This document shows positions 1 to 37,491 of a DNA stretch of 37,491 nt, piece after piece. The translations under genes were made by a program, and so were the position numbers. Numbering within the stretch: the first letter of the stretch is position 1; each line of letters starts with the position of its first letter. The notes under the pieces are model-generated. The model did no database searches, was not told the origin of the DNA, and worked only from the letters and a program-made list of their open reading frames with translations. Origin of the DNA: Minisyncoccota bacterium. Lineage in GTDB: Bacteria; Patescibacteriota; Minisyncoccia; UBA6257; HR35. Location: assembly GCA_032249155.1 (NCBI GenBank), contig JAVVGJ010000003.1, forward strand, positions 1 through 37,491, given 5' to 3'.

Positions 1-2
1 TT

Positions 3-1974: not shown

Positions 1975-2729
1975 TTTTGCACTTGAAAAAATATTTCTAC
2001 CGCCTCAGGCTCTTCAGAAAGAAAATCAATTATTGATTCAACTTTTTGTGTTTCTTTTGATTTTATTTGAAAATAAGTTCGGGACAGTCCTATTAGTGAG
2101 TTTTCTTTATTGTATAAAAAAATTATAGCTTCTATTTTATCAAAATCATAAATTGAACTGTTATAAACATTAAAAGAAATCCGATAGCCTCCTATTTCTA
2201 GTTTTTCTATTTTTGGTTCATAATAAATAAGATCACGAGAAGAAAATTTTTCTTCAAATTCTTTCCAATCATAGTCATTTATTTCTACTTTTGGTTTAAA
2301 ATCATCAAATTCTGGAGCTCTTACGTTTTGAATGATAAGCCACCTTGTTTCGTTAGGATAAATAAAAGAAGTTTCTTTTGGTGTTTCGAAAATTTTTTTA
2401 CCTTCTTTATCATAAAGTTCAAAATAATATGAAAGTTTTTCTAAACCATATTTTTCATTAGGATTAAAAATTTTAAAAACAAAATCATAACTGCCGTCTT
2501 TGTAAGAAATAAATCTTTTAGAAGAAATTCTTAAAGGCTCTAATTTTTTGACTTCGCAAGGAGGACAAGGACCACCACAATCAATATCTAACTCTCCTTG
2601 ATTTTTTATATTATCAAAACAAGAAGGTTTTGGAGAAAGAAATTTGTAAAGAGAAAAAAATAAAAAGATTAAAAGAGGAGAAACAAAAATTAAAAAAATT
2701 TTAATTTGTTTTAAAAGCCTTTCTGACAT
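1971..2729 (-). CDS. Membrane-anchored hypothetical protein with CX14CGGPCPPC motif
   Basis: The ORF is trimmed to Met22 (MSERLL..., ATG at 2729) because the longer ORF overlaps the 5S rRNA. It has one N-terminal TM helix, then CFDNIKNQGELDIDCGGPCPPC and a beta-rich region. Its stop overlaps the trpS start. Confidence 0.7.
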   Translation of the reverse strand: MSERLLKQIKIFLIFVSPLLIFLFFSLYKFLSPKPSCFDNIKNQGELDIDCGGPCPPCEVKKLEPLRISSKRFISYKDGSYDFVFKIFNPNEKYGLEKLSYYFELYDKEGKKIFETPKETSFIYPNETRWLIIQNVRAPEFDDFKPKVEINDYDWKEFEEKFSSRDLIYYEPKIEKLEIGGYRISFNVYNSSIYDFDKIEAIIFLYNKENSLIGLSRTYFQIKSKETQKVESIIDFLSEEPEAVEIFFQVQK

Positions 2730-2751
2730 TAGTTTAATTTTAAAATAAAAA

Positions 2752-2867
2752 GCCCGGGCAGCACCTACTCTCGCACCCTTAGGTACTACCATCGGCTCCG
2801 GGCCGTTTCACCCAACTGTTCGGAATGTGAAGGGGTGGTTCCAACCCGGATATACAGCCACCCGGGC
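2752..2867 (-). rRNA. rrf: 5S ribosomal RNA
   Basis: The reverse complement reads GCCCGGGTGGC...CCGAACAGTTGGGTGAAACGGCCCGGAGCCGATGGTAGT...GCGAGAGTAGGTGCTGCCCGGGC, the canonical 5S pattern with a closing helix. Lies about 20 nt downstream of the 23S. Confidence 0.9.
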
Positions 2868-2888
2868 AAATTTTATTTTAAAAACTTC

Positions 2889-2912: not shown

Positions 2913-2929
<17 letters not shown>
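2889..2929. repeat. 3' arm of the long inverted repeat flanking 23S (processing stem / helix 1)
   Basis: 2913-2929 GTTAGAAGTTAGCTGAG is the perfect reverse complement of 5929-5945. 2889-2912 pairs imperfectly with 5946-5968. Confidence 0.8.
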
Positions 2930-5928
<2,999 letters not shown>

Positions 5929-5945
<17 letters not shown>

Positions 5946-7081: not shown

Positions 7082-7663
7082 ATGTCAGAATTAACAGGTT
7101 TAAGAGAAAAAATAAGCGAAGTTCTTAAGGCCAAGAGCGTTCCTAATTTTGATTTTTTGCCTCAAGAAGAGGTAAAAGTTTTTATTACTGCTTTAAGAAA
7201 TTTCCCTAAGCTTTTACCTTATTTTGAAATAAAAGCAAAGAAAGAAGATTTAGAAAAATGGGCTTTAATTTATATCTCTCTGCATAACCTTTTTCACGAA
7301 ATTTTTGAAAATTATAAAATAGAAGAAAAAGAGCTTGCTTCGACTTTAAAGATATTTTTAGAAACAGAAAATCTTCTTTCTCAAAATCAAAAAGAACTTC
7401 TTACTTCTTCTTATACTCTTTTAGCTATAGAATCTTTAAACCTCCATCATGAACTTCCTTATCTTATAAGCGAAAAGATAATTTTAGGAGAAAGTTACTT
7501 CTTTGGCGTTTTTGAACCTTCTCTTTGGGGAACTAAAATAGAAAGCGAAAAACTTTTAGAAGTAGTAAAAAATGTTAATAAAAAATTTGAAGAAGGAGAT
7601 ATACAGAAACTAATAGAAGCTTATAAGAATTTTAAGTTTGATATTTTAAAATTTAAATTTTAA
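7082..7663 (+). CDS. Hypothetical protein (all-alpha, no recognised motif)
   Basis: 193-aa ORF with an ATG start and codon/amino-acid usage like its neighbours. Its 3' end overlaps the convergent 7653..8909 CDS by 11 nt. Confidence 0.65.
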   Translation: MSELTGLREKISEVLKAKSVPNFDFLPQEEVKVFITALRNFPKLLPYFEIKAKKEDLEKWALIYISLHNLFHEIFENYKIEEKELASTLKIFLETENLLSQNQKELLTSSYTLLAIESLNLHHELPYLISEKIILGESYFFGVFEPSLWGTKIESEKLLEVVKNVNKKFEEGDIQKLIEAYKNFKFDILKFKF

Positions 7664-8909
7664 AAAGAATCGTAAAAACTAAAGTAATTAAAGTTATAAA
7701 AATAAGTGGCAAAAAGATTTCAATTATTTTAGAGTTAGAAGAATAAATTTCTGCTTTTCCTTTATTTAAAATTGACTTATCAAAATCATTAGTTTCAATT
7801 TCTTCTTTTGAGATCTTATTAGCTTTTACTTCTTCTTTGGATTCTTCAACTTTTAAATTATTTTCTTGATAGCTTTCTTTTTCGTTTTCTCTTCCAGGTG
7901 TTGGCAAGGCCCAAAACCATTCTTCTTCGTTTCTTGAAAAAGAAAGACCTTCTGGCGCTTTTCCTGAATAAGAAATTTTATAAAGAGTTTCTTTATCTTT
8001 CAAAAGACTAATTTCTTCTCCTGAATTTCTTATATAAAATCTATAGTCACTATTTCTTAAAACTTTAAATTCTTTTTCCTTAATTTCTCCGCTAAGTTTT
8101 AATTTAAATCTTCCTACTTTTAAAGTTAAGCCATCTAAATTTAACTTTTTGTCACATTCATTATAAAGTTCTATAAATTCTCTATTTTCATCCCTGCCTT
8201 CAGGATTAGGCAAAAATTCGTTGATCACAAGACAAGAAAAATCTTCTTCAGACATCGTAGACGTACTTATTAAACTTAATAAACTAGATGTAGAAATTTC
8301 ACTCGATGAAGATTTTAAAGAAATTTTTTCTTCATTATTTTGAGAAGCATTTTTTTCTTTAACATCCTCTTCAATTTTTTCTTTTATTTCCAATTTTCTT
8401 TCATCTGGATAAACTCCGGGATTTCCACCTTTTTGACTATTTTCATAACAAATGTTATTTATAAAAATAATTGAATAGCTGTTTCCATTTCCGCCGCAGG
8501 TATTTGAATATTCTCTATAAGCCCTTAAATTTTTATTTTCATCAAAAATGCTTATAATACCCTTTTCGTTTCTTAAACTCATATTTTTAACTTCTATTAT
8601 CTTTCCTCTAAAAGAAGGGTATTCACTCAAAAATTTTTGCTTATTTTGAGCGATAATTAAAACTTCGTTAGGATTTAAAATCACTTCAGTTTCCTCAAAA
8701 AGATGGTTACTTCCATCATTAAATCTCCAACCTTTCTTACCTCCAAAAATTTTTATGGATGCCGAAGAAAGATTAACTACTTCTACCCATTCTCTTCCTT
8801 CATCACTGCCTTCAGGACTGTACATTATTTCAGAAATATAAAGATCACTAGCGAAAACTAAATTTGAAAGAAAAAAGAAAAAGAAAAAGATTTTCTTAAA
8901 ATCTAACAT
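7653..8909 (-). CDS. Exported protein with two lamin-tail domains (LTD) and a C-terminal TM anchor
   Basis: N-terminal signal-like FFFFFFLSNLVFA. Two LTD signatures: LYISEIMYSPEGSDEGREWVEVVNLS and LVINEFLPNPEGRDENREFIELYNEC. A Ser/Thr-rich linker lies between them, and the C-terminus has the hydrophobic helix IFLPLIFITLITLVFTILF. Confidence 0.8.
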   Translation of the reverse strand: MLDFKKIFFFFFFLSNLVFASDLYISEIMYSPEGSDEGREWVEVVNLSSASIKIFGGKKGWRFNDGSNHLFEETEVILNPNEVLIIAQNKQKFLSEYPSFRGKIIEVKNMSLRNEKGIISIFDENKNLRAYREYSNTCGGNGNSYSIIFINNICYENSQKGGNPGVYPDERKLEIKEKIEEDVKEKNASQNNEEKISLKSSSSEISTSSLLSLISTSTMSEEDFSCLVINEFLPNPEGRDENREFIELYNECDKKLNLDGLTLKVGRFKLKLSGEIKEKEFKVLRNSDYRFYIRNSGEEISLLKDKETLYKISYSGKAPEGLSFSRNEEEWFWALPTPGRENEKESYQENNLKVEESKEEVKANKISKEEIETNDFDKSILNKGKAEIYSSNSKIIEIFLPLIFITLITLVFTILFKI

Positions 8910-9234
8910 TTAAAAACCTATCCAAAGAAATTTTTCCCGGACCTATAAAAATTAAAACTAATATTAAAGAAATTTTAAAAATTTCTAATGTTAAATCATT
9001 TTTTTCTAAAAATTTTTTTGTTAAATTAAAAAATTCGTAAAATAAAAGAAAGAAACTTACAAAAGAAGTGTAAAAACCTAAAGATAAAAAAATTGATGAA
9101 GTAATTAAAAAAAGAGAAAGAAAATATTTGTCTTCTTTGTTTTGCTTTAAAGCCTCTTTAAAATAATAGTAAGATAAAGAAAGTCTCACTATTAAAAGGG
9201 AAAGAAAATCAAAAAACCATAAATCTTGAATCAT
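8896..9234 (-). CDS. DoxX-like small membrane protein
   Basis: 112 aa with 3-4 TM helices. The C-terminal FIGPGKISLDRFL resembles the DoxX GPGxxSLD signature. It overlaps the LTD gene start by 14 nt. Confidence 0.5.
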   Translation of the reverse strand: MIQDLWFFDFLSLLIVRLSLSYYYFKEALKQNKEDKYFLSLFLITSSIFLSLGFYTSFVSFFLLFYEFFNLTKKFLEKNDLTLEIFKISLILVLIFIGPGKISLDRFLNVRF

Positions 9235-10264
9235 GGAAGAAAAAATATCTTACTTAGCTTTATCTTATAATTTTAAACCTCCTAATAAAAAAGTTTTATC
9301 TCTCTATAAAAAATATAAATCTTTTTCGAAAGTTTTTCAACTTTTAGAAAACGAGTTTAAATTTAAACTTGATTGGGAAAAGGAATATTTAAAACTTAAA
9401 AACTTAGGTGGTGAGATTCTTTTAATAAACGAAAAAAGTTTTCCAGAAGAACTTAAATTTAACCAAACTTTTGTTTTAGGTATTTTTGTTTTGGGAGAAA
9501 TTAATTTAAATAAATTCAAAGAAAAAGTAGCTATTGTTGGGACAAGAAAACCAACAAAAATTGGAGAAAAAACTGCTAAAAATTTTTCTTACGTTTTAGC
9601 AAAAAATGGCCTTTGTATTGTTAGCGGTTTAGCTTATGGTATAGACTTAGCTGCTCATTTAGGAAGTTTAGAAGCTAAAAAAGAAAATATTGCTGTTATT
9701 GGCTCTGGTTTTGATTTTATTTTAAAAGACCCAAGAAAAAAATATGTAGAAAAAATTATTGAAATTGGCGGAAGCATCGTGAGCGAATATCCCCCAAAAA
9801 CTCCTCCTTTAAATTATCATTTTCCTTTAAGGAATAGAATTATAGCAGCTTTAAGTAAAATAGTAATCATTATTGAAGCTCCTGAAAAATCTGGCGCTTT
9901 AATTACTGCTAAATTTGCTTTGGAATACGGTAAAGATGTTTACGCTTTGCCTGGAAGCATTTATGAAAAAAATTATTTAGGAAACTTAAAACTTATCCAA
10001 GAGGGTGCTTTTCTTTTAATTTCACCTGAAGAAGTTCTTGAAATTTTTGGAATAAGAAAAAACAAAATGATAGTTGAATTAGAAGATGATGAAGAAAAAA
10101 TTTATAAAATGATTAAAGAAAAACCAAGAAGCATTGAAGAATTAACAAAAGAATCAGGTTTAGATGTTTCTCAAATTTTAAAAATTATCACTTCTTTAGA
10201 AATTAAAAACTTAATTTTTGCTAAAGAAGGAAAATATTATTCAAATGAAAATTATAATTGTTGA
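9233..10264 (+). CDS. dprA: DNA processing protein DprA (Smf)
   Basis: Rossmann-like core motifs: VAIVGTRKPT, IVSGLAYGIDLAAHLGSL, IAVIGSGFD, FPLRNRIIAALS, IIEAPEKSGALITAKFALEYGKDVYALPG. Shows the conserved dprA-topA synteny. Confidence 0.9.
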   Translation: MEEKISYLALSYNFKPPNKKVLSLYKKYKSFSKVFQLLENEFKFKLDWEKEYLKLKNLGGEILLINEKSFPEELKFNQTFVLGIFVLGEINLNKFKEKVAIVGTRKPTKIGEKTAKNFSYVLAKNGLCIVSGLAYGIDLAAHLGSLEAKKENIAVIGSGFDFILKDPRKKYVEKIIEIGGSIVSEYPPKTPPLNYHFPLRNRIIAALSKIVIIIEAPEKSGALITAKFALEYGKDVYALPGSIYEKNYLGNLKLIQEGAFLLISPEEVLEIFGIRKNKMIVELEDDEEKIYKMIKEKPRSIEELTKESGLDVSQILKIITSLEIKNLIFAKEGKYYSNENYNC

Positions 10265-21639: not shown

Positions 21640-21979
21640 GGGAAGGATCATAAGCCGGGTTCTGTTTTAGCTAATCATCTGTCTAAACCCTTTGTTGCCA
21701 AAGGGCTCATGCGGCACTCCCGGTTTTAAACCGGGCACGGCCTTGCACCCAGGAAGAAGAAAGCAACCTTATGAATTGCTTCATAAGGTATGGAGGTAGC
21801 CAAAAGAAGACTCTTTTGACACCCTCCATCTTTTCACCTTTCTCCAGGTTTTAAAACCTGGATAGTATAGTCTCTGTGCTTTCTTCTAGGGCTTTCGCCC
21901 TAACTCCTTTTCGGAGTTTCCCTAAATGGGTGCCCGGACTTTCCTCTGGAAAAAATCCCAGCGATTAGCGATCCTTCCC
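21640..21979 (-). ncRNA. rnpB: RNase P RNA (bacterial type A-like)
   Basis: The reverse complement starts GGGAAGGATC...CCAGAGGAAAGTCCGGGC (CR-I) and ends ...ACAGAACCCGGCTTATGATCCTTCCC (CR-V plus P1 closure). It is a strong GC island. Confidence 0.9.
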
Positions 21980-22792
21980 TATAATATTATACCACTCTTT
22001 TTCAAAAACGATTTTTAAATCTCCGTTTTTTTGAGTAAGCCATAAGTTTTTATTTTTAAAGAAATTTAAAACCTCTTTATGTGGATGTCCATATCTATTA
22101 AATCCAGATTGAATGACAATAATTTTGGGATTTATGGATTCAAAAAATTCTTTAACTAAAGAATATTTAGAGCCGTGATGGGGAAAATCAAGAAGAGAAA
22201 GGTTTTTTAAAAGATTTGTGTATTTCATTAAATTTTTTTCAATGCCTTCTTTTTCTATATCTCCTGTAAGAAGAAAGCTAAAATCTTTTCTTTTACCATA
22301 AATTACTAAAGAATTATCATTATCTCTTTTATAAGATTTGTCTGGATGTAAAACTAAAATGGTTGTTTTGTTTAAAATTATTTTGTCGCCTTTATCTATA
22401 AAAAAGATTTTTATCTTCTTTTTTTCTAAATTTTTTAAAAGTTCTTTAAAACTATAATCATTTAAAGAGGTTTTATTTAAAAGAAGAAGTCTTATTTCAT
22501 ATTTCTCGCTTATAGAGTTTAGTGATAAATAATGATCAACATCTGGATGGGAAATAATTACTATATCTATATTTCTTTTAAAAAATGGCAAGTTATTATT
22601 TAAGGCTTTTAATATTTTAAAATCATTTTTGCCTGTATCGTACATAACAACATTTTTTCCTTCTTTTAAAATAAAACTTTTTCCTTGGCCAATATCTGGA
22701 GCTAAAAGAAAATTTTCTGAATTTAGATAAACAAAAATAGAATAATAGATAAAAATATTAGCGAAAATTAAAATTAAATTCAATGTTTTCAT
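21965..22792 (-). CDS. comEC: ComEC C-terminal metallo-beta-lactamase domain protein
   Basis: 275 aa. An N-terminal hydrophobic helix is followed by MBL motifs: VIISHPDVDH, LLTGDIE, FPHHGSKYS and RYGHPHKEVL, as in the ComEC/Rec2 C-terminal domain. Confidence 0.85.
   Translation of the reverse strand: MKTLNLILIFANIFIYYSIFVYLNSENFLLAPDIGQGKSFILKEGKNVVMYDTGKNDFKILKALNNNLPFFKRNIDIVIISHPDVDHYLSLNSISEKYEIRLLLLNKTSLNDYSFKELLKNLEKKKIKIFFIDKGDKIILNKTTILVLHPDKSYKRDNDNSLVIYGKRKDFSFLLTGDIEKEGIEKNLMKYTNLLKNLSLLDFPHHGSKYSLVKEFFESINPKIIVIQSGFNRYGHPHKEVLNFFKNKNLWLTQKNGDLKIVFEKEWYNIIGKDR
21986..21994 (-). promoter_or_regulatory. Extended -10 promoter of rnpB
   Basis: The minus strand reads TGgTATAAT, 6 nt, then the first G of P1 at 21979. 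It lies inside the comEC-MBL coding sequence. No good -35 was seen. Confidence 0.5.
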
Positions 22793-23936
22793 TTTTATTA
22801 ATTTTATAGATAAGAAAAAGAGTTATGAAATAAAAAGTTAAATAAAAATAGCTTGGCAAAAGAAGATTTATTTCTGGAAGAAAATTTCCTAACTCTGCTA
22901 TTTTTCTTATAAAAAGGAGGGGTGGATAAAGAATAAAAGAAAAATAAGGAAGAGGAGAAATGAAAATTCCCAAAATAAAAATAGTTGGCAGAAGAAAAAG
23001 CACCGGAAGATTAAAGAAAAGTCCAAAAGGATTTAAAGAGTTAAAAGCAAAACCAAGAAATGGAAAAACTAAAATGAAAGAGGCAAAAGACTGAGAAATA
23101 GTTTCTTTTAAATAATCGTTTTTTAAAAAACTTAGTTTTTCTTTAATAAAAGGAGAAATATAAATTATGCCTAAAAAAGAAAGAAAAGAAAGTATTGTTC
23201 CGATTTCAAAAATTTCTTTAGGAAAAATCAAAAGAATAATAATAAGCGCTGTTAGAATAATATTTCTTTTTAGCGGTATTCTTCCAGAAAAACTCTTAAT
23301 AAAAATTAAAAATAAAATGAAAATAAAGGCTCTTAAAATGCTTCCTTCAAAGCCAACTAAAAATAAATAAAAAAGTAAAATAAAAATTGAAATAAGAAGC
23401 GAAATTTTATAATTTAACCTCAAATTTCTCAAAAAAGATAAAAAAATTGAAAAAATTAAAACAAGATTACTTCCTGAAGCAACTAAAATATGAGAAATGC
23501 CTACTTTTTGAAAATTTTTATAAAGATCCCTATCTTCAATATTCTCGCCAAAAATAAGTCCTCTTAAAATATTTTCTTCTGGCCAAGGAAGGTTTTTCTT
23601 TATTTTCTCATCATAAAAATTTCTTACTTTAGAAGAAATTCTAAAAATAATATTAGCTTTTTCTTTTTGAAAAATTTTTGGAAAATAAATCCTATTTTCT
23701 TTAATTTCAAAATTATCAAAAATTAGTTTTTCTCCTAAGTTTACCTTTTCCCTCAAATATAAAAAGTAATTTCCTTTATTTTTTAAGTTAACGGCTTTTA
23801 CCTTGTAGTAATTTTGAATTTTTTGAGGATGAGAAATAACTAAAAATTCATTATTTGGAGATTCTTTTTGGAAATTAAGTAAAAAAACTATAAAAGCTAA
23901 AAAAATCAAAAGAAAAAAATATAAATTAGCTTTCAT
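22758..23936 (-). CDS. comEC: ComEC N-terminal OB-like and competence channel domain protein
   Basis: 392 aa, polytopic. GISHILVASGSNLVLIF matches the ComEC competence-domain signature. It ends 35 nt after the start of the MBL ORF, in another frame. Confidence 0.8.
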   Translation of the reverse strand: MKANLYFFLLIFLAFIVFLLNFQKESPNNEFLVISHPQKIQNYYKVKAVNLKNKGNYFLYLREKVNLGEKLIFDNFEIKENRIYFPKIFQKEKANIIFRISSKVRNFYDEKIKKNLPWPEENILRGLIFGENIEDRDLYKNFQKVGISHILVASGSNLVLIFSIFLSFLRNLRLNYKISLLISIFILLFYLFLVGFEGSILRAFIFILFLIFIKSFSGRIPLKRNIILTALIIILLIFPKEIFEIGTILSFLSFLGIIYISPFIKEKLSFLKNDYLKETISQSFASFILVFPFLGFAFNSLNPFGLFFNLPVLFLLPTIFILGIFISPLPYFSFILYPPLLFIRKIAELGNFLPEINLLLPSYFYLTFYFITLFLIYKINKNENIEFNFNFR

Positions 23937-23943
23937 TAAAATT

Positions 23944-24014
23944 TGCCCCTAGGAGGACTCGAACCTCCATCTTCTCCTTAGGACGGAGACGCTCTTCCTT
24001 TGAGCTATAGGGGC
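23944..24014 (-). tRNA. tRNA-Arg (anticodon CCT)
   Basis: The reverse complement reads GCCCCTATAGCTCAAAGGAAGAGCGTCTCCGTCCTAAGGAGAAGATGGAGGTTCGAGTCCTCCTAGGGGCA. It forms a standard cloverleaf with anticodon loop GTCCTAA. Confidence 0.9.
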
Positions 24015-24047
24015 ATTTTTCTCTTTTTATATTTTAAAATAAAACTC

Positions 24048-24362
24048 ATGAGATTTCTTTCTTTGTGCTTAATTTTTTTAATCATTTTAGGTTTTGTCTT
24101 TGCCGAAGAAGATGGTTTTCAAAAAATTCAAGATGAGGTTTTTAGAATTTTAAGAAATATTATTATGTTTCTTTTTTCAGCTTTAATGCTTTTATCTGGT
24201 TTAGTTTTACTTTTTTTAGGTGTGAAATATATTTTTGCTAAAGGTGATATTAAAGAGCTTCACAAAACGCTGCTTTATGTAGTCTTAGGTATTATTCTTT
24301 TAGCAAGCTCTTTTTTTGTACCTAATCTCTTAAAAAACCTTATTGAAGGTTTAAGATCTTAA
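24048..24362 (+). CDS. Small pilin-like membrane protein (signal peptide plus two TM helices; TrbC/VirB2-like layout)
   Basis: Start moved to ATG 24048 because the TTG-extended ORF overlaps tRNA-Arg. The product is 104 aa: signal peptide MRFLSLCLIFLIILGFVFA, then helix-GVKYIFAKGDIKE-helix. This pattern recurs in the N-terminus of the 35956..36807 protein. Confidence 0.55.
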   Translation: MRFLSLCLIFLIILGFVFAEEDGFQKIQDEVFRILRNIIMFLFSALMLLSGLVLLFLGVKYIFAKGDIKELHKTLLYVVLGIILLASSFFVPNLLKNLIEGLRS

Positions 24363-27244: not shown

Positions 27245-28888
27245 TTATAAAATTCCTGTTACTCTTTCTACTTCTTCTAAAGTAGTAACTTTCTTTAAAG
27301 CTTTAATAAGGCCATCTTGTTTCATACTTACAAAATTATCCTTGATTTCTAAATATATTTCTTCTTCTGTAGGATTTTTTAAAATCAGGGGTTGAAGTTC
27401 TTCTTCTAAAACAAATAGTTCAAAAATGCCAATTCTTCCTTTATAACCTGTATTAAAACACAAACTGCAACCTAAACCTTTAGCGAGTTTGAAATTATCT
27501 AAATCAAAATCCTTATTTACTCTACTGGGTAAGTTTTGGAGTTCTTTTTTTATTTTTTCTCTAGTTTTTTCGTCAGGCTCATATTCTTCTTTACAATTTT
27601 CACAAATTTTTCTTACAAGTCTTTGAGCGATCACAAGTCTTAACGCTGAAGGAATAAGTTTAGGATCAACTTCTAAGCTTATAAGCCTAGGAATTGCTCC
27701 TAAAGACGAGTTAGTGTGTAAGGTTGAAAGAACAAGGTGTCCTGTCAAAGAAGCCTGAATGGCTGTGTTAGCTGTTTCTTTATCTCTTATCTCACCAACT
27801 AAAATCACATCGGGGTCATGTCTTAAAAAAGCTTTAAGTGCTGAAGCAAAAGTTAAATTTTTCTTTTCGTCTATTTCTACTTGAGTTATCCCTTCAATTC
27901 TGTATTCGATAGGATTTTCAATAGTTATGATCTTTACTTCGGGTCTTTTGAGTTTCATTAAAATAGAATAAAGAGTTGTTGTTTTTCCTGAACCTGTAGG
28001 ACCAGTATTAAGGATCATTCCATTAGGAAGGAAAATGATTTTATTTAAGATTTCATAATCATCTTCTCTAAGCCCTAAATCCTCTAAAGATTTTGTGATT
28101 TTAGAAAAATTTAATATTCTAATAACAAAGGCTTCACCATAACCTGTTGGTAAAGAAGAAACACGAAAATCTATTTTATTTTTTTCAAAATTTACAGAAA
28201 AACTGCCGTCTTGTGGTTTATCAGTGATATTTAAAATCATTCCAGAAATGATTTTTATTCTGTTTTTAATAATCTCATAGTTTTCTTTATCTAAAGAAAT
28301 AACATCATAAAGAAGACCGTCTAAACGATAACGAACTATTACTTTATCTTCATAAGGTTCAAAATGAATATCAGAGGCATCAAATTTTAACCCTCCGGCA
28401 ATAATAGTATCCAATATAAAAAAGGGATTTTCTTTTAAAAGCTCTTGACAAAAATTTTGTAAAAGCTCTTTTCTTGTTATTTCTTTATTTACTTTTTCAA
28501 TCACTTCTTGGCTTAAATCTAAACTTTTAGAAATTTTAAGTTTTTTAAGTCTAATCAAGCTATATTCGTCTAAAGCTTCTAAAAAACTAGAATTAGAAAT
28601 TATACCCCAAACAACTTCCTTTCTTTTTTGTTTTAAATTCTCCATAAAATCTTTAAGACCTGGAAGCAGAGGATCAACAATACCGATAATAATTTTTCTG
28701 CCATCATCTTCTATAGGAATGAGTTTAAATTTTTCAGCTTCTTCTTTAGAAATAGTCTCTAAAGCTGCTGGTTTTGGTTTTAAAAGAGAAAGGTTAAAAT
28801 AAGGAACACCCAATCTCGAAGCTAAAACTTGGGCCAAATATTCTTCTTGCTCTCTTTTTTTTCTTTTTATTTCTTCCCACTCTATCAT
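27245..28888 (-). CDS. pilB: Type IV pilus / type II secretion assembly ATPase (PilB/GspE family)
   Basis: 547 aa from ATG 28888 (the track starts one codon earlier at TTG). It has an N-terminal GSPII-E-type domain, Walker A GPTGSGKTTT, Asp and His boxes, and a CxxC...CxxC tetracysteine motif. Confidence 0.9.
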   Translation of the reverse strand: MIEWEEIKRKKREQEEYLAQVLASRLGVPYFNLSLLKPKPAALETISKEEAEKFKLIPIEDDGRKIIIGIVDPLLPGLKDFMENLKQKRKEVVWGIISNSSFLEALDEYSLIRLKKLKISKSLDLSQEVIEKVNKEITRKELLQNFCQELLKENPFFILDTIIAGGLKFDASDIHFEPYEDKVIVRYRLDGLLYDVISLDKENYEIIKNRIKIISGMILNITDKPQDGSFSVNFEKNKIDFRVSSLPTGYGEAFVIRILNFSKITKSLEDLGLREDDYEILNKIIFLPNGMILNTGPTGSGKTTTLYSILMKLKRPEVKIITIENPIEYRIEGITQVEIDEKKNLTFASALKAFLRHDPDVILVGEIRDKETANTAIQASLTGHLVLSTLHTNSSLGAIPRLISLEVDPKLIPSALRLVIAQRLVRKICENCKEEYEPDEKTREKIKKELQNLPSRVNKDFDLDNFKLAKGLGCSLCFNTGYKGRIGIFELFVLEEELQPLILKNPTEEEIYLEIKDNFVSMKQDGLIKALKKVTTLEEVERVTGIL

Positions 28889-28924
28889 CAAGAATATTAT
28901 AAGATGGTTTAAAATTTAAATTAA

Positions 28925-30955
28925 ATGAAATCTTTTTTCAAACTTCTATTTTTTTTCTTTTTTGTTTTTTCAAGTTTGCTTTTAATTCTTTATTTCTATT
29001 TTTCAAAAGATCTTCCTGAACCTAGCATTTTAGGACAAAAAATAGTCAGTGGCGGCGTAGAAATTTATGATAGAACAGAAACAGTTCTTCTTTACAAAAT
29101 AGGATTTAGAAGAAAATGGGTTGATTATAATGAAATTCCTGACAAAGTTATTAAATCTTTTTTAGTAGCTGAAGATGTTGAATTTTTTAAACATAAAGGT
29201 GTAAGCTTAAGAGGGATTATAAGATCAATATATTTAAATTTAAAAAAAGGAGAATTTTCTTACGGAGGCTCAACGATTACTCAACAGCTTGCAAGAAATC
29301 TTTTTTTAACTAAGGAAAAAACTTTAGGAAGGAAAATTAGAGAGATTATTCTTGCTTGGAAAATTGAAAAAAAATATTCTAAAGAAGAAATTTTAACTTT
29401 TTATTTAAATTCTATTTATTTAGGAGAAGGAAATATTGGTGTTGGGGCCGCTAGTGAGTATTATTTTGATAAAAAAATCCAAAGGGTTTCCTGGTCTGAA
29501 GCTGCTATTTTGGCTAGTATTGCTCGAGCACCAGCTCTTTATGCTCCAACTTCTCCGGAAAATTTAAAAAGATTAAAAGAAAGAAGGGATTTTATTTTGA
29601 AAAAACTTTATGAAAGCGGTTTTCTTTCTTCAATAGAATATGAAAAAGCTTTAAAAGAAGAAATACCTTTAGTTAAAGGAAAGTATGCTGGAATTATTGC
29701 GCCGCATTTTGTTATGGAAGTAATTAACGTTCTTAAAGAAAAATTTCCTAATAAGAATTTAGAGGAGCTTAATCTTAAGGTGGTAACAACTTTAGATTTA
29801 AAGCTTCAAAAAATTGCTGAAGAAACTATCGAAAAAAGAGTAAAAGAAAATAAGGAGAAATATGGAAGTACTAACGGAGCTTTAATGGCTATTAACCCTA
29901 AAACAGGAGAGGTTTTAGCTTTAGTAGGTTCTAAAGATTTTTTTGATGAAACTATTGACGGTCAAGTAAATGTTCCTTTTAGAAAAAGACAACCTGGTTC
30001 AGCTATTAAACCACTTGTTTATTCTGCTCTTTTTGAATTAGGTTATCCTGATAAAACAATAGTTTTTGATGTTCCTACAAATTTTGGAAATTATAAACCT
30101 AAAAATTTTGATGGTAAGTTTAAAGGACCGGTAAATTTAAGACAAGCTTTAGCAGAATCAAGGAATGTTCCCTCTGTAAAGGTTTTTTATCTAGCTATTC
30201 CTGAAAGAGTTATTACTTTAGCTAAAGAAGCTGGTATGGAATATCTTGATGATTGGAAAAAATATGGACTTTCCTTTGGTTTGGGAACAGCAGAAGTAAG
30301 AATGGCTGACCTTATAAGATTTTACGGTGCTTTAGCCAATGATGGCATTTTGGTTTCACAAACTTTAATTTTAAAAATTGTTCAAGAAGGTAAAATTATT
30401 TACGAATATTTCCCTCAAGAAAAAAGAATAATTTCTTCGGAAACAGCTCGTTTGGTAACAGATATTTTAAAAGACAAAGAGGCGAGAAGGGGGCTTTTTC
30501 AAAGAAGTTTTTATCTAACTGATTTTGGTTTCTATGAGGTGGCTTTAAAGACAGGAACAACACAGTTTTATCAAGATGCCTGGACTTTTGGCTATACTAA
30601 AGATTTAGTTGTTGGAGTTTGGACAGGAAATACTAATGGACAAAGACTTAAATCTCAAGCCGCAAGTATTGTCGCTGCTTTACCTATTTTTCATGATTTT
30701 ATGCAAAAACTCATAGATGAAGGCGTTCTTCCAGAAAACAAATTTGATCCGCCAGAAAAAAGAGAAGTAAATAAACCTATGCTAAACGGTGAATGGATAA
30801 CACCTTACGGAATTCATGATATTCTTTTTTATGTAGATCGTTTTGATCCTTTAGGACCTATTCCTTTAAATCCAGAAAAAGATCCGCAATTTTTGCTTTG
30901 GGAAGAGGGTGTTCAAAATTGGCTTAGATCTTTTGGTGAAAATAAAGAATTTTAA
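28925..30955 (+). CDS. Class A penicillin-binding protein (glycosyltransferase + transpeptidase)
   Basis: GT51 motifs EDVEFFKHKG, GGSTITQQLARN and RKIRE. Transpeptidase motifs SAIKP (SxxK), SRN and KTGTT. It has an N-terminal TM anchor. Confidence 0.9.
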   Translation: MKSFFKLLFFFFFVFSSLLLILYFYFSKDLPEPSILGQKIVSGGVEIYDRTETVLLYKIGFRRKWVDYNEIPDKVIKSFLVAEDVEFFKHKGVSLRGIIRSIYLNLKKGEFSYGGSTITQQLARNLFLTKEKTLGRKIREIILAWKIEKKYSKEEILTFYLNSIYLGEGNIGVGAASEYYFDKKIQRVSWSEAAILASIARAPALYAPTSPENLKRLKERRDFILKKLYESGFLSSIEYEKALKEEIPLVKGKYAGIIAPHFVMEVINVLKEKFPNKNLEELNLKVVTTLDLKLQKIAEETIEKRVKENKEKYGSTNGALMAINPKTGEVLALVGSKDFFDETIDGQVNVPFRKRQPGSAIKPLVYSALFELGYPDKTIVFDVPTNFGNYKPKNFDGKFKGPVNLRQALAESRNVPSVKVFYLAIPERVITLAKEAGMEYLDDWKKYGLSFGLGTAEVRMADLIRFYGALANDGILVSQTLILKIVQEGKIIYEYFPQEKRIISSETARLVTDILKDKEARRGLFQRSFYLTDFGFYEVALKTGTTQFYQDAWTFGYTKDLVVGVWTGNTNGQRLKSQAASIVAALPIFHDFMQKLIDEGVLPENKFDPPEKREVNKPMLNGEWITPYGIHDILFYVDRFDPLGPIPLNPEKDPQFLLWEEGVQNWLRSFGENKEF

Positions 30956-34241: not shown

Positions 34242-34880
34242 ATGAGTTTTATAGAAAACAATTTTTACGGTTTTTTTAAATTTCTCTTAGATTTAACAAA
34301 AGACTACGGTTTAGCTCTTTTGAGCTTTGTTTTTATTTTAAGATTAGCAATGCTTCCTTTAAGTTTTTTAAATTTTAGAGAAGAAATAAAGCTAAAAAAA
34401 ATAAGACCAAAAATAAAAGAAATAATGGAAAAATATAAAAGCGATCCTTTAAAACAAATTGAAGAGTTAAACAAAGTTTATGAAGAATTTAAATATAATC
34501 CTATTTTAACTTTATTTTTGCAATTTTTGCCCTTACCTATTTTAATTTCGATTTTCTTTGTTTTAAAAAAAATTATTCAAGAAGATAAAAAAATCTTTTT
34601 CTTAGGAATTATTGACCTAACTTCTAAAAATATTTTTTTAATTATTTTAACTATTTTAATTCAAGCAATTTATTTTTTAATGCAAACTAAAGGAGAAAAA
34701 GAAAATTTAAAAATGCAAATTTTCTTTTTGCTTCTCATCTTTTTGATAATAATTCAGTTTCCTGCAATTTTTACTCTTTATTGGTTAAGCAATCTTATTT
34801 TAATGATAATTGAAAGAAAGCTATTCGAGATTTACAACATAAAGTTTAGCGTCGTTTCTGTTCCAAAAAATAAGTCCTAA
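34242..34880 (+). CDS. yidC: Membrane protein insertase YidC (short form)
   Basis: 212 aa, polytopic. KIRPKIKEIMEKYKSDPLKQIEELNKVYEEFKYNPI matches the conserved YidC/Oxa1 loop. Synteny after rnpA. Confidence 0.85.
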   Translation: MSFIENNFYGFFKFLLDLTKDYGLALLSFVFILRLAMLPLSFLNFREEIKLKKIRPKIKEIMEKYKSDPLKQIEELNKVYEEFKYNPILTLFLQFLPLPILISIFFVLKKIIQEDKKIFFLGIIDLTSKNIFLIILTILIQAIYFLMQTKGEKENLKMQIFFLLLIFLIIIQFPAIFTLYWLSNLILMIIERKLFEIYNIKFSVVSVPKNKS

Positions 34881-35954
34881 AGGAGAAATTTGTGGACTAA
34901 GAACATCAAAATTTCCATTTAAAATAATTTCTTTTTCTTCTTTATTTTGTGGATCATAGATTACAATTTTATCTTTAGATGCCTTTTTAAGCTTAAGCCA
35001 ATCTTCATAGTTAATATTATTTAAAGAAACACCACAAACAAGAAGTTTTTTGAAAGTACATTTTTCTGACGGAGCCCACCAACTAAATTTTTTAATTTCC
35101 TTTAGATTTTTATCTAAAAGCTTAGAAATTAAAACACCATTTTCTTCATAAGAAAAAAGTAAAAATTTTTGATCATCGCTTGAAAGTAAAGAAGGCCAAG
35201 ATTTTTTATCAAAAAGAAGTTTAATTTTGCTAGGATTTTTAAGATTTAAAGAAAAAATTGGTGTTGAAGGTGAAATAAGAGGATCTGCCCAAACAAAAAC
35301 ATCATCTCCAAAAATTTCCATTTTTGCTTGTGGAAGATTTAAATTAGCTAAAACTAAAGGATCTTTTTTGAAATCACTTAATCTTAAAATTCGCCCACCC
35401 TTTTCTTCATCAAAATAAAAATAAATTAAATCATCGTTTTTCCATTTGAAAAAAGCAATATCTTCCTTTAAGGTTTTAACTTCATCAAAAGAAAAATCGA
35501 TAATTTTCCATTCATTATAATCTTTTAAAATAAGTCTTTTTCTTGTAGGAGATATAGAAGGAAAGTAAACTGAAAATGATTTATAAAGCTCTTTGTAAGA
35601 TTTATCATCTAGATTTAAGTATTTAACTATGCCATTTTGAGGATCATAAATGTAAATATAGGGATAAATAAGATCAATAAAAAGTAGTTCAGAATCAAAA
35701 AGAGGTTTAATTTTTTCTTCTAAAGTTGAAGTAGGAAGAGAAAGCTCTTTGGAAGAAGTTTCTTTTTTTTCTGGAATTAAAGAAGGCTCTTCTTTAGGAA
35801 TTTCAAGAGGAGCTGGTTTTTCTTCAGGTGCTTCTACAATCTTTGGTTCTTTAGGAAGTTCTTTTTTTCTAGTGACAAAATAACCTAAGAAAGAAACCAA
35901 GGTTATAATAATGAGAATAGCTAATCCTAATATAAAAAGATTTTTTCTATTCAT
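34821..35954 (-). CDS. Membrane-anchored protein with Pro/Glu/Lys linker and beta-propeller-like repeats
   Basis: 377 aa with an N-terminal TM helix and a PEEKPAPLEIPKEEP linker. A repeated IYDPQN motif occurs near both ends of the globular part (YIYDPQNGIVKY, VIYDPQNKEEKE), suggesting a TolB/PD40-like fold. Confidence 0.65.
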   Translation of the reverse strand: MNRKNLFILGLAILIIITLVSFLGYFVTRKKELPKEPKIVEAPEEKPAPLEIPKEEPSLIPEKKETSSKELSLPTSTLEEKIKPLFDSELLFIDLIYPYIYIYDPQNGIVKYLNLDDKSYKELYKSFSVYFPSISPTRKRLILKDYNEWKIIDFSFDEVKTLKEDIAFFKWKNDDLIYFYFDEEKGGRILRLSDFKKDPLVLANLNLPQAKMEIFGDDVFVWADPLISPSTPIFSLNLKNPSKIKLLFDKKSWPSLLSSDDQKFLLFSYEENGVLISKLLDKNLKEIKKFSWWAPSEKCTFKKLLVCGVSLNNINYEDWLKLKKASKDKIVIYDPQNKEEKEIILNGNFDVLSPQISPLGLIFWNRNDAKLYVVNLE

Positions 35955-35955: not shown

Positions 35956-36807
35956 TTATGGATTAATATCTAAAATTATGTGAAGATGGGGCCTCGTGTA
36001 ATGACAAGTGCTTCCTTGCTTAGGACAACTTTTTGCTATTTTTCCTCCGTGCTCATCTGTACAATATATATCTTCTTCGCTTTCATTTAATATATGAAAA
36101 CCGCAATTTAAAAAAGCATCTGCAAGCCTTTGATAAGTTATACCATTTGGCATAACATCTATACAATTAGCCCAACGGGTTCCATCTTTATGACATAAAT
36201 CTGGGTATGTATAACCTTCATCATAACCCCAAGTAATAATATAACTATTTGAACCAATCTGCTTATCTACACAATTTGTTAAAGCATCAACGATTTCACT
36301 TCTCATTAATTTTCCTCGATATCTTACTATTTCATTATTATATTTGTTTTTTGCATAAATTTCATAATTTTGTCTGGCTGTGCATATATAGGGCATCCAT
36401 TTTTCTCCCAAATAATTTAAATTAAGACGCGGGAAAGTGGTATCTGTAATAGGATCAACGCGATACTCATAAGCTTCATCTGGAAGACCTTCGTAAACTT
36501 TAAATTTAAGAACACCTGCCTTTTCTACATAAGGTATTTTTAATTTCACCTCAAAAATTCTTGGATTAATAATATGAAGAATTTGAGGTAAAACTAAAAC
36601 AACAATTATTGCTCCTATAGAGTTCATAATCCTATTTTTTCCCGATTCTTTACTTGTAATACTTCCTGCAGAAAAAAGATATTCCACTGCTCCATAAACC
36701 ATATTTAAAAAAGCTAAAGAAAACAAAACTACAATTCCTAAATTATAGATAGCTTGAAAACAACTTGCTAAATCTGAACAAGTAGTAATTTGATTAAGCC
36801 AAGGCAT
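35956..36807 (-). CDS. Pilin-like two-helix membrane module fused to an 8-Cys, His-rich globular domain
   Basis: 283 aa. The N-terminus (GIVVLFSLAFLNMVYGAVEYLFSAGSITSKESGKNRIMNSIGAIIVVLVL) has the same layout as the 24048 protein. The C-terminus contains TWGY, CHKDG...ANCID and PHLHI motifs. Confidence 0.65.
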   Translation of the reverse strand: MPWLNQITTCSDLASCFQAIYNLGIVVLFSLAFLNMVYGAVEYLFSAGSITSKESGKNRIMNSIGAIIVVLVLPQILHIINPRIFEVKLKIPYVEKAGVLKFKVYEGLPDEAYEYRVDPITDTTFPRLNLNYLGEKWMPYICTARQNYEIYAKNKYNNEIVRYRGKLMRSEIVDALTNCVDKQIGSNSYIITWGYDEGYTYPDLCHKDGTRWANCIDVMPNGITYQRLADAFLNCGFHILNESEEDIYCTDEHGGKIAKSCPKQGSTCHYTRPHLHIILDINP

Positions 36808-36808: not shown

Positions 36809-37429
36809 TTATCTTAAAAAGGCGTCGGCAAAGGCACTTTCGCTTCTGTTTTGTTTATTCCTTACTTCTAAATTTAAAAAACCTCCACTTAAAAGATAAG
36901 GATTTAAAGTTTTATCGTTAGAAATAAAATTGCCGTTAAGTCTCCAAATAGAAGTAAGATCATTTGAAGAAAAACCAAAAGCTTTAAAGGTTATTTCTTC
37001 TTTTTCTAAAGGATTGCCTACAAAAGGAATTTCAAAATAATTATTTTTAAGATAGATAATAGAAACATCTGGTTTTTCTAAATAGATGTTACCATCAAAA
37101 GAAGAAAGCAAATTTCCATTTATTAAATTTTTGATTGAAAGACTTATCTTAAAATCTCCGCTTGAATATCTTTTATTAAGATCAATTTTTATAAAGGGTT
37201 TATTTGAAAAAATTTCAGGTGTTTCTGAAAAAGGAAGTTTCCATTCATATCTAGAAAGAGATGGATAGGAATAAACCGCTTTTGTTTTTTTATCGACAAA
37301 AACAGCAGAAACAATTGCTCCATTATTTAATTTTTTAGAAAAGAAATAAACGTCTTTTGTTTGAGCAAAAACAAAAAATGGAAAGAAAATGAAAAGAATT
37401 AAAATAGGGGTTAATCCTCGAGGGGACAT
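36809..37429 (-). CDS. Secreted beta-rich hypothetical protein
   Basis: Start placed at ATG 37429, which gives a canonical signal peptide MSPRGLTPILILFIFFPFFVFAQT. The frame stays open upstream to the window edge (GTG at 37444 in the track), so the 5' end is uncertain. Confidence 0.6.
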   Translation of the reverse strand: MSPRGLTPILILFIFFPFFVFAQTKDVYFFSKKLNNGAIVSAVFVDKKTKAVYSYPSLSRYEWKLPFSETPEIFSNKPFIKIDLNKRYSSGDFKISLSIKNLINGNLLSSFDGNIYLEKPDVSIIYLKNNYFEIPFVGNPLEKEEITFKAFGFSSNDLTSIWRLNGNFISNDKTLNPYLLSGGFLNLEVRNKQNRSESAFADAFLR

Positions 37430-37491
37430 TTTAGCTTTACCCACTATAGTGGGTTCAGCTATTTTTTTAGTTACCTTCGTTGCTTTACTTA

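Follow-up and report, generated by a model that had tools for sequence, protein, structure and literature searches.

This locus raises the question of what a protein might do that begins with a pilin-like membrane hairpin and continues into a domain of no modelled family. The gene lies in the window, a stretch of 37,491 nucleotides from a Minisyncoccota bacterium, and the original prediction had described its product as a pilin-like module fused to a possible surface-displayed zinc hydrolase or effector. The gene and its first part are the following:

35956..36807, minus strand: whole gene, anchor plus putative Hedgehog/LAS-type peptidase domain (ORF, homologues, purifying selection)
36517..36807, minus strand: N-module, residues 1-97 (Pfam, invariant residues, hydropathy, model helices, DNA repeat)

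The ORF starts with ATG and encodes 283 amino acids followed by a stop codon. Full-length homologues at 41-97% identity were found in JGI, ENA and NCBI assemblies. Selection was assessed against a 93%-identical orthologue in locus L007 (dS = 0.19), and the N-module had an omega of 0.08, the C-terminal domain one of 0.22. The ORF is a real gene under purifying selection.

The N-module consists of a short N-tail, a first helix, a K/R-containing loop (residues 47-61), a second helix, an NPxIF motif and a linker. Residues C10 and C16 of the N-tail and the NPxIF motif are invariant across the family. Hydropathy bore out the proposed pair of hydrophobic helices, at approximately residues 20-46 and 62-82, with AGSITSKESGKNRIM and its three K/R residues between them; the helices of the AlphaFold2 model span residues 13-46 and 53-80. 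The positive-inside rule was ambiguous, with three K/R residues in the loop against four in the linker after helix 2. According to hydropathy no signal peptide precedes the hairpin, which starts near residue 17-20, whereas the short pilin encoded in the window (24000..24362) has an N-terminal leader.

Against the Pfam family PF18895 (T4SS_pilin, gathering score 26.6 bits), the window protein fell short of the cut-off with 17.3 bits (E = 0.005). Nine of ten newly scanned relatives passed it (27-33 bits), as did two others (38.3 and 27.7 bits). The relatives scoring 27.1-38.3 bits carry N-modules 43-58% identical to that of the window protein, within an overall range of 43-98% among relatives. 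Because the window protein stays below the cut-off and its relatives lie above it, family membership rests on the relatives, and by transitivity through their sequences the assignment of the N-module to T4SS_pilin probably holds. The pilin-like anchor originally proposed was thus supported. Its supposed common layout with the short pilin stood only by way of the shared Pfam family, as a direct profile comparison of the two was not significant. With the N-module alignment as query, a word-indexed homologue search recovered two fragments only; further relatives came from scanning genome and metagenome contigs for sequence patterns.

The remainder of the protein is made up of the following features:

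36316..36516, minus strand: poorly conserved N-terminal sub-domain of the presumably extracytoplasmic part, residues 98-164 (alignments, model)
35959..36315, minus strand: putative LAS/Hedgehog-DD-peptidase core, residues 165-283 (PDB profile matches, model, Foldseek, hhalign)
36157..36192, minus strand: H206 (36190-36192) to D217 (36157-36159), predicted zinc ligands, invariant in 18 sequences and aligned to H141 and D148 of Sonic hedgehog (Shh)
36082..36084, minus strand: E242 (in NES), counterpart of Shh E177 and predicted catalytic base (alignments)
35995..36078, minus strand: Cys-containing insert, residues 244-271, a β-hairpin in the model (hhalign, alignment, model)
35980..35988, minus strand: H274-L-H276, HxH motif, invariant in 18 of 18 aligned family members

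The three motifs singled out in the original prediction were found in the claimed order, ITWGY at 191-195, CHKDGTRWANCID at 205-217 and RPHLHIILD at 272-280. The count of exactly eight cysteines in the C-terminal part was also correct (residues 142, 179, 205, 215, 235, 249, 261 and 268), while the label 'His-rich' was overstated for 7 His in 283 amino acids. The cysteines are not all conserved: most are missing from the relative P0022, and in several orthologues Ser or Gly stands in their place. Since they are not conserved across the family, the cysteines do not form the catalytic core, and a catalytic or Cys4 metal-binding role was rejected. Invariant residues in an alignment of 18 sequences were T192, H206, D217, G236, F237, H274 and H276, and Glu is conserved at position 242. 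The site residues H, D, E and HxH are kept across three sub-families that are 16-37% identical to the window domain. Ten residues separate His and Asp in the window protein, six in P0004-P0007 and seven to ten elsewhere; the usual zinc motif of the clan is H-x6-D, with H-x3-D in lysostaphins. The earlier caveat that the spacing departs from that of LAS enzymes therefore applies to the H-x10-D of the window clade, a loop modelled with low confidence in the window protein, but not to the orthologues with a canonical H-x6-D. The insert at 244-271 is missing or short in sister sub-families, where hhalign skipped 19 residues. The C-domain family is rare; a set of 1.84 billion representative proteins contained 9 clusters of it.

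In searches of the PDB with family profiles (hmmsearch), all of the 22-25 significant matches were Hedgehog N-domains; no bacterial M15 structure was matched by sequence. The Sonic hedgehog N-domain was found with E-values of 1.9e-6 (profile A4), 1.9e-7 (A5, insert removed) and 4.6e-8 (A7, 18 sequences). The residues aligned to Hedgehog are its zinc ligands and catalytic Glu, and after removal of the insert E242 and H274-L-H276 align to Shh E177 and H181-I-H183. The deletion was designed to mimic the Hedgehog spacing, and the gain in score came partly by construction; independent support was provided by unedited hhalign comparisons to insert-less sister groups, in which the HLH was matched with a probability of 98.3%.

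The full-length AlphaFold2 model reached a pLDDT of 65.6, and Foldseek returned helical-hairpin noise only; the C-domain was therefore modelled alone with a deeper alignment (pLDDT 81.6, pTM 0.82). In this model residues 98-164 form two short hairpins and a helix, and the core elements follow in the order helix, ITWGY strand, His loop, CIDVMP strand, helix, FHILNES strand, insert and HLHIIL strand. The top 11 Foldseek matches were Hedgehog N-domains, followed by VanXYc, all with weak scores (E = 0.07-1.6, TM 0.30-0.46), and M15 phage peptidases were among the weak BFVD matches. The structural comparison agrees weakly with the clan fold, a central antiparallel sheet flanked by helices on one side. 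The window C-domain had no match in Pfam even at E ≤ 10, including HH_signal, Peptidase_M15, M15_3, M15_4 and VanY, and none in NCBIfam; 1 of 15 C-domain members matched Peptidase_M15_3 weakly (E = 0.013). As no existing Pfam peptidase family was matched, the C-domain would constitute an unmodelled family within its clan. Profile matches and aligned site residues, with weak agreement from the predicted fold, support its placement as a divergent member of the LAS/Hedgehog-DD-peptidase clan (MEROPS clan MD), and the suspected resemblance to LAS/M15-type peptidases appears well founded.

Hedgehog N-domains and their bacterial counterparts, bacHh (M15A-like), share with the window family the order of elements, the His and Asp ligands, the Glu and the HxH motif, and bacHh domains are likewise located C-terminal to transmembrane segments (Roelink 2018, PMC6027127). 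The window family differs by its low identity to Hedgehog (~12-17% in the Foldseek alignments), a His-Asp spacing of 6-10 instead of a fixed 6, a Cys-rich insert of 20-40 residues between Glu and HxH, the unmatched HH_signal profile and a pilin-type hairpin as anchor. The VanY/M15B D-Ala-D-Ala carboxypeptidases, VanX, LdcB and the phage L-Ala-D-Glu peptidases would belong to the same clan and follow the same zinc-site logic, and VanXYc was the first non-Hedgehog match in Foldseek. In VanY the motif is ExxH instead of HxH, and Pfam M15 matches are absent save the one weak case. With the window family a deeply branching bacterial lineage is added that has the animal Hedgehog ligand as its nearest solved relative, and this bears on the debate on a peptidase ancestry of Hedgehog.

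Two neighbouring genes complete the operon as far as it lies in the window:

36809..37491, minus strand: upstream operon gene, its 3' part, open to the window edge with no stop, homologue of a ~400-aa membrane protein (w400)
34821..35954, minus strand: downstream operon gene, 377 aa, with an N-terminal membrane anchor and of no known family (w377)

The stop codon of w400 is 1 nt from the ATG of the fusion gene (TAAAATG), and the junction between the fusion gene and w377 is likewise TAAAATG. The window stops within w400 and does not reach virB4, so that the T4SS context was taken from orthologous loci. There, w400 directly follows virB4 (L003, L005, L007 and other loci), and the order PrgI-like, VirB4, w400, fusion, w377 was found in about 20 loci. 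These T4SS clusters lie beside yidC/rnpA/dnaA, and the VirB4 of an orthologous locus matches NF045971 at 1e-113. The window itself contains a class A PBP gene near the origin. Whichever enzyme head is present in the T4SS slot (LAS, YkuD, CHAP-like or SLT-like), it is followed by w377, for which a PDB search yielded no match. Patescibacterial T4SS are located near dnaA, mostly without VirB1 (PMC12102498); surveys found VirB2-like pilins in most genomes with such a system and VirB1-type hydrolases in few. These systems are essential for epibiotic growth, have no relaxase and are thought to export proteins. No other T4SS is known to be essential to the cell that carries it.

The closest described case is SEML1_0007 of Ca. 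Southlakia epibionticum ML1, which is encoded directly after virB4, is classed by ECOD as Hedgehog/DD-peptidase and was growth-defective or essential in Tn-seq (Wang et al. 2023, PMC10633639). The window protein resembles it in the post-virB4 position, the origin-proximal T4SS cluster and the lack of a Pfam match. The ECOD reference for the C-terminal domain of SEML1_0007 is a Sonic hedgehog structure, and the likeness concerns position and fold class. SEML1_0007 is much larger (1113 against 283 aa) and has no PF18895 record, and in the window lineage, unlike in Southlakia, a ~400-aa membrane protein stands between virB4 and the peptidase gene. A literature search for a fusion of pilin anchor and peptidase found no description. 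The architecture can thus be called undescribed in the sense that no paper on it was found, but it recurs in public metagenomes and the Southlakia protein is on record.

The survey of genome and metagenome contigs for the same fusion revealed at least six types of enzyme head on one N-module, recurring across related genomes and public metagenomes. The heads comprise C39-like (C39_2), SLT-like, YkuD, VanY and CHAP-like domains and other LAS variants. Pfam matched the VanY head at 5e-18 (VanY-type in L020 and L023) and the YkuD head at 1.7e-14; SLT_3-like heads were present in P0012, L015 and L030 and CHAP-like heads in L021 and L028. When the profile of the C-domain was compared with those of the VanY-type, C39-like, SLT-like and CHAP-like heads, no comparison was significant. 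The heads are accordingly unrelated domains and not divergent copies of one. L,D-transpeptidase and DD-carboxypeptidase heads are wall-maturation enzymes and not hole-punchers. Each genome has two fusion copies. The second follows genes for a Mur ligase, DegT and FemAB; in some genomes it stands opposite murA, mraY and a gene for a DD-carboxypeptidase, and the next gene, rplL or murA, lies on the opposite strand. In related genomes the two N-modules form inverted repeats of ~300 bp, 98-100% identical, which flank ~37-42 kb with dnaA. One anchor, many wall-enzyme heads and two genomic slots make a compact engineering rule, with gene conversion keeping the anchors of a genome identical.

We consider it the best explanation, with a probability of roughly 0.55, that the gene product is a membrane-anchored, outward-facing, zinc-dependent peptidoglycan peptidase which remodels the cell's own wall at the site of T4SS or pilus assembly. 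We infer a topology in which the VirB2-like hairpin (1-97) has both ends outside the membrane and the K/R loop inside. A zinc ion would be held by H206, D217 and H276, and E242, aided by H274, would activate a water molecule for the cleavage of a peptide bond in a murein stem or cross-link. Close to the replication origin, the gene is presumably translationally coupled with virB4 and the genes for the 400-aa membrane protein and the 377-aa protein, and the most likely task of the enzyme would be the remodelling of the own wall where the T4SS or pilus is assembled. It belongs to a swap-head family that puts other wall enzymes on the same anchor and has two members in each genome. A peptidoglycan target is favoured by the wall-enzyme sister heads and by the second copy among Mur ligase, FemAB, murA and mraY genes.

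The protein may thus correspond in function to VirB1, which appears to be missing from most Patescibacteria. VirB1-type hydrolases of Gram-positive T4SS (TraG of pIP501, PrgK of pCF10, CwlT of ICEBs1, TcpG) are also membrane-tethered, are encoded in monoderm-type T4SS clusters and presumably open the wall for the machine (PMC12102498). They carry SLT and CHAP or NlpC/P60 domains behind an ordinary signal anchor, whereas the window protein would combine a LAS head with a VirB2-like anchor. It has no SLT or CHAP catalytic domain, although sister fusions carry SLT_3-like and CHAP-like heads, and its relation to VirB1 would be one of functional analogy, not homology. If the remodelling role is correct, wall enzymes hidden behind pilin-like anchors and unmodelled LAS domains could account for the 'missing' VirB1 function, and a concrete, assayable enzyme would be linked to the Patescibacterial T4SS.

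A host-directed weapon is a rather unlikely alternative. In that case the T4SS would take the protein into or onto a VirB2-type pilus, the head would cut the host wall and the variable heads would match different host walls. The gene is located within a T4SS operon of the relaxase-free, essential and putatively protein-exporting kind described above, and the family recalls polymorphic effectors in that its N-module is constant while the C-terminal enzyme heads vary. In F-pilus structures both pilin termini are on the pilus exterior, and a C-terminal head could thus be exposed. VirB2/TrbC and the PF18895 pilins of Patescibacteria share the two-helix hairpin family and the T4SS cluster location with the window protein. 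These ordinary pilins, however, are ~100-140 aa long with a cleaved signal peptide and no enzyme domain, while the window protein starts with the hairpin, has no signal peptide before it and bears a 186-aa head. If every subunit bore a head of 190 aa, packing into a filament would be difficult, and the N-module has no detectable profile similarity to the genome's own short pilin. No head-specific immunity gene was found directly downstream in either slot: w377 is constant in one, and in the other rplL or murA lies on the opposite strand. A classical polymorphic toxin with an immunity gene, of which the combination of constant N-module and variable C-terminal domains is reminiscent, was rejected for this lack of a head-specific downstream gene.

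Next in plausibility, and likewise improbable, comes an ordinary housekeeping wall enzyme, for which the hairpin would be the standard anchor of the lineage and the adjacency to the T4SS a by-product of clustering near the origin. The second copy, placed with wall-synthesis genes, together with the L,D-transpeptidase and DD-carboxypeptidase (YkuD and VanY) heads typical of maturation enzymes, fits such a function as well as it fits a T4SS role, and the class A PBP gene near the origin points in the same direction. This explanation leaves unaccounted for the 1-nt coupling to the post-virB4 gene, which is kept in ~20 loci with anchors down to 46% identity, and an anchor homologous to a T4SS pilin family instead of a generic signal anchor. 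The Hedgehog/DD-peptidase-fold protein of Ca. Southlakia is also encoded right after virB4, although the cluster is otherwise organised differently.

It seems doubtful that the fusions are enzyme-bearing minor pilins whose two copies serve as a recombinational head switch without a dedicated recombinase. Homologous recombination between the ~300-bp inverted repeats would then flip the origin-containing segment of 37-42 kb and swap the heads expressed from the T4SS operon and the wall-synthesis operon in a shufflon-like manner. In the R64 shufflon the C-terminal segment of PilV is switched, which gives a constant pilus module with alternative ends. The window family resembles R64 and polymorphic toxins in its constant N-terminal module with alternative ends, and its inverted repeats could exchange heads. 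It differs in having ~300-bp coding repeats 37-42 kb apart, not short sfx sites, and no immunity genes. No gene for a site-specific recombinase was seen in the window. Head exchange between the slots could be an assembly artefact.

We regard as very improbable a non-catalytic Hedgehog-like adhesin or wall-binding module that has merely kept the fold. Its nearest solved relatives are signalling ligands with a disputed enzymatic role, and the His-Asp spacing of the window clade is non-canonical. The invariance of the five site residues over three divergent sub-families (16-37% identity) argues against it, as pseudo-enzymes of the Drosophila Hedgehog type, in which the peptidase motif is lost, have lost exactly these residues.

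An assembly chimera of two unrelated genes joined at a repeat is scarcely credible and was rejected as the source of the fusion. Each genome has the ~300-bp N-module repeat twice, so that assemblers could swap what follows it, but w400, N-module, LAS head and w377 occur full-length in six independent assemblies, both halves are under purifying selection, and both repeat copies always lead in frame into an enzyme head, so that any swap would still yield a fusion protein. The repeat is a caveat for the assignment of heads to slots. Many metagenome contigs end inside the N-module repeat, and the surroundings of the origin in these genomes are broken or flipped by it in metagenome assemblies.

In the best-supported reading, the fusion gene would encode a zinc peptidase that acts on murein peptides, faces outward and is anchored by a hairpin. 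The gene and the landmarks of its product are:

35956..36807, minus strand: fusion ORF, ATG start, 283 aa
Residues 191-195, 205-217 and 272-280: motifs ITWGY, CHKDGTRWANCID and RPHLHIILD, from N- to C-terminus
Residues 142, 179, 205, 215, 235, 249, 261 and 268: the eight cysteines after residue 100
35995..36078 (residues 244-271): insert in the C-terminal domain

The original prediction had described two hydrophobic helices followed by a part with eight cysteines and these three motifs in this order. The motifs are present as stated, eight cysteines were counted beyond residue 100, and the helices were seen at about residues 20-46 and 62-82 with three K/R in the connecting loop. The label 'His-rich' did not hold, as the 283 aa include just 7 His. 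Homologue alignments showed that the family conserves the cysteines only in part.

The window protein scored 17.3 bits against the Pfam model PF18895 (T4SS_pilin), below the cut-off of 26.6 bits. This cut-off was exceeded by relatives that share 43-98% identity with the window protein over the first ~97 residues: two reached 38.3 and 27.7 bits and, in another scan, nine out of ten reached 27-33 bits. A direct profile comparison of the N-module (residues 1-97) with the short pilin encoded in the window gave no significant match. The predicted pilin-like anchor was thus upheld through the relatives, and not by the window protein's own score or by the short pilin. AlphaFold2 modelled the N-module as two long helices (13-46 and 53-80), and its invariant positions are C10, C16, Q18, Y21-N22, A32-F33, G39-A40, Y43 and N81-P82-x-I84-F85. 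The hairpin opens the window protein directly, whereas the short pilin has a leader peptide. Given the missing leader and the non-significant match, the N-module is treated as an anchor from a putative divergent T4SS_pilin branch, not as a proven pilus subunit.

The C-domain (the remainder, core 165-283) has no model in Pfam or NCBIfam and is rare: nine clusters were recovered when 1.84 billion representative proteins were searched exhaustively with HMMER, and the same N-module is present in all the full-length ones. The profile searches proposed earlier were run against Pfam and PDB. In PDB, a 7-sequence profile matched Desert hedgehog marginally (E = 0.059), a 15-sequence profile matched Sonic hedgehog (Shh; E = 1.9e-6), and an 18-sequence profile that included two sister sub-families reached E = 4.6e-8; significant matches were exclusively Hedgehog N-domains in each search. 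The profile alignment placed ITxGY..D.CHxxGxCID on RVTEGWDE..ESLHYEGRAVDI, where the zinc ligands of Shh (H141 and D148) lie, and GFxVLNES on GFDWVYYES, which carries Shh E177. In the alignment of 18 sequences, of which many share <25% identity with the domain of the window protein, T192, H206, D217, G236, F237, H274 and H276 do not vary, with Glu at 242. Judged by sequence, these residues make up the signature that PMC6027127 gives for LAS / Hh-DD-peptidases. Several orthologues have the canonical His-Asp spacing of 6, others have 7-10, and the window clade has 10. The suggested likeness to LAS/M15 peptidases therefore holds for the site residues, and the differing spacing for the window clade and not for the family throughout.

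H274-L-H276 lies ~30 residues downstream of the Glu strand, past the Cys-containing insert. In metagenome sister sub-families that lack most of the insert, HLH was matched across a gap of 19 residues (hhalign Prob 98.3%, E = 1.5e-14), and once the insert was deleted from the alignment Desert hedgehog scored 31 instead of 18.5 bits, a gain that arises partly by construction. On these grounds H274-x-H276 was equated with Shh H181-x-H183. In the orthologues P0004-P0007 and P0017 the insert reads C-x(n)-CPxxC-x(n)-CxC, resembling a zinc ribbon, and it has a weak PDB match to a DUF1610 zinc-ribbon protein; the window clade retains three of these cysteines. The insert may form a second structural metal site or a disulfide knot.

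A model of the C-domain, built from the 15-sequence alignment, was reasonably confident (pLDDT 81.6, pTM 0.82) and arranges its elements in the order of Hedgehog: helix, strand, His loop, Asp strand, helix, Glu strand, insert and HxH strand. The best 11 Foldseek matches in PDB were Hedgehog N-domains, followed by VanXYc, at weak scores (E = 0.07-1.6, TM 0.30-0.46), and weak matches among viral structures include M15 and M15A phage peptidases. The structure prediction that had been proposed thus suggests a Hedgehog-like fold by element order and top matches, at weak scores.

The fusion gene lies between two genes of the same strand, both junctions reading TAAAATG with 1-nt spacing. The neighbouring features are:

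36809..37491, minus strand: upstream ORF, open at the window end, no stop
34821..34880: 60-nt overlap of the 3' ends of convergent yidC (plus) and the 377-aa gene (minus)
L005:1381-2010 and 2007-3806: split VirB4 of an orthologous locus, likewise in L003, L006, L007, L016-L018 and others

The gene order VirB6-like polytopic protein, PrgI-like protein, split VirB4, w400 (a membrane protein of ~400 aa), fusion gene, w377 (an anchored protein of 377 aa), yidC, rnpA, dnaA, dnaN was read from the orthologous loci L003, L005, L007 and L014 and from more distant ones. Their split VirB4 matches NF045971 (E = 1e-113, above cut-off). Consistently, an N-terminal part (~209 aa) and an ATPase (~599 aa) are encoded by separate, overlapping ORFs, which looks like a natural split and not a sequencing error. 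The upstream ORF of the window, given as 211 aa from a GTG start, in fact extends to the window end and is the C-terminal half of w400, which belongs to no known family and directly follows virB4 in related loci.

Patescibacterial T4SS clusters lie near dnaA, and recognisable VirB1 is absent from most genomes with a VirB2-like pilin (PMC12102498); the position near dnaA agrees with the loci studied here. In Ca. Southlakia epibionticum ML1, SEML1_0007 immediately follows virB4, its C-terminal domain is classed as Hedgehog/DD-peptidase, and Tn-seq called the gene essential (PMC10633639). This provides an experimental precedent for a T4SS-linked peptidase of this fold; SEML1_0007 adjoins virB4, whereas w400 is interposed in the orthologous loci.

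Pattern scans with the N-module recovered 6 genome loci and 33 metagenome loci, so that the survey for the same fusion found it recurrently, with several types of enzyme domain (heads) behind the N-module. LAS-type heads are the window's Hedgehog-like domain, two further sub-families and the head of locus L031; the other heads are VanY (E = 5e-18), YkuD L,D-transpeptidase (1.7e-14), Peptidase_C39_2, an SLT_3-like lysozyme domain and a CHAP-like Cys/His domain. All are peptidoglycan-acting enzyme kinds, which independently supports murein as the predicted substrate of the window protein. Fusion genes are found at two conserved positions (slots), one in the T4SS operon and another after Mur ligase, DegT and FemAB, facing rplL in some genomes and murA, mraY and a DD-carboxypeptidase gene in others. 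As the gene downstream of the T4SS slot is constant irrespective of the head, an immunity gene matched to each head is lacking; this speaks against a toxin-immunity system of the classical kind.

Acting as a VirB1 analogue in function, the window protein would be co-expressed with the T4SS core and would most likely remodel the producer's own wall at the machine. An enzyme displayed on the pilus and directed at the host is kept alive by the combination of constant anchor and variable heads. A plain housekeeping enzyme with an incidental T4SS neighbourhood is favoured by the second slot and the maturation-type heads, and a link to the T4SS by the tight operon and by the precedent in Southlakia. 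The C-domain could also be a non-catalytic binding domain; the evidence distinguishes these three rivals only partly. An assembly chimera is very unlikely as the origin of the fusion: the ORF is a real gene, with full-length homologues (41-97% identity) in JGI, ENA and NCBI data and, against the closest orthologue with DNA sequence available (L007, dS = 0.19), omega values of 0.08 (N-module) and 0.22 (C-domain).

In related genomes the N-modules of the two fusion genes also form an inverted repeat around the origin. The coordinates concerned are:

36517..36807: window equivalent of the repeat
3..380, minus strand: rplL, left window edge (1..380)
L005:5010-5323 and L004:9993-10306: repeat pair; further pairs are L003 with L002 and L007 with L009

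Three contigs (Ga0080007_1104133, DAINRM010000005.1 and BEIL01000002.1) contain both copies, with the genes convergent, 37-42 kb apart and dnaA between them; the N-module DNA of the copies is identical at 286/291, 280/291 (100% from +24 to +306) and 290/291 positions. The edges are sharp and the sequences beyond are unrelated. Three more pairs on separate contigs showed the same near-identity and sharp edges, giving an inverted repeat of ~260-315 bp with 98-100% identity per genome. Since N-modules of orthologues diverge far more between genomes than the copies do within one, concerted evolution by gene conversion is indicated. Base 1 of the window falls 1 nt past the stop of a C39-type paralogue in the 97.6%-identical contig L001, which places a second copy just outside the window, the window spanning almost exactly the inter-copy segment. 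L001 (JAUQQL010000027.1) is labelled a Thermodesulfobacteriota MAG, yet matches the window at 97.6% identity along 1.5 kb and has the same Patescibacteria-type gene set; it is probably mis-binned.

Opposite joinings were found in L016 (VirB4, w400, fusion, rplL) and L015 (FemAB, fusion, w377), and organisms Y and Z differ in the same way, as expected from inversion between the repeats. Both orientations occur across the assemblies L016, L015, L028, L029, L021 and L023, joining T4SS genes to the rplL/murA side and wall-synthesis genes to the w377/yidC side. Many contigs end within the repeat (L002, L009, L024, L025, L033-L038). Inversion is a hypothesis only, as an assembler flip at a 300-bp exact repeat could mimic it; neither recombinase nor integrase families turned up in Pfam scans of the window.

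Neither the fold class nor a Hedgehog/DD-peptidase linked to a T4SS is new. The literature searched gave no description of the pilin-type anchor, the C-domain family, the two-slot head-swapping family or the conversion-kept origin-flanking repeat, all of which appear undescribed; the original prediction likewise did not recognise the combination of pilin-like anchor and enzyme-like domain as one already described.

The window interior is of housekeeping type, with 23S and 5S rRNA, RNase P RNA, tmRNA, topA, dprA, polA, comEC, ftsK, pilB and a class A PBP; 16S rRNA was not found within the window.

2922..5934 and 2753..2865: 23S and 5S rRNA genes
7653..8909: lamin-tail-domain protein
9233..10264: DprA
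27245..28891: PilB-type ATPase
28925..30955: class A PBP

Genes for competence, type IV pili and wall synthesis thus cluster around the origin. ComEC seems to be divided between two ORFs with a 35-nt overlap (Competence domain 22758..23936, metallo-beta-lactamase domain 21965..22792), either a natural split or a frameshift. The short pilin adjoins ftsK, 12 kb from the T4SS-linked gene. The proposed TTG start of its ORF (23943..24362) is overlapped by tRNA-Arg (23943..24015, minus), so that the start is most likely the ATG at 24048, as originally taken. The 5' end of a 273-aa ORF (1971..2792) shares 40 nt with the 5S gene, and the true start of this ORF is therefore probably further in. In HR35, an ORF at L004:14932-15450 may, judged by eye, encode a LAGLIDADG-type endonuclease.
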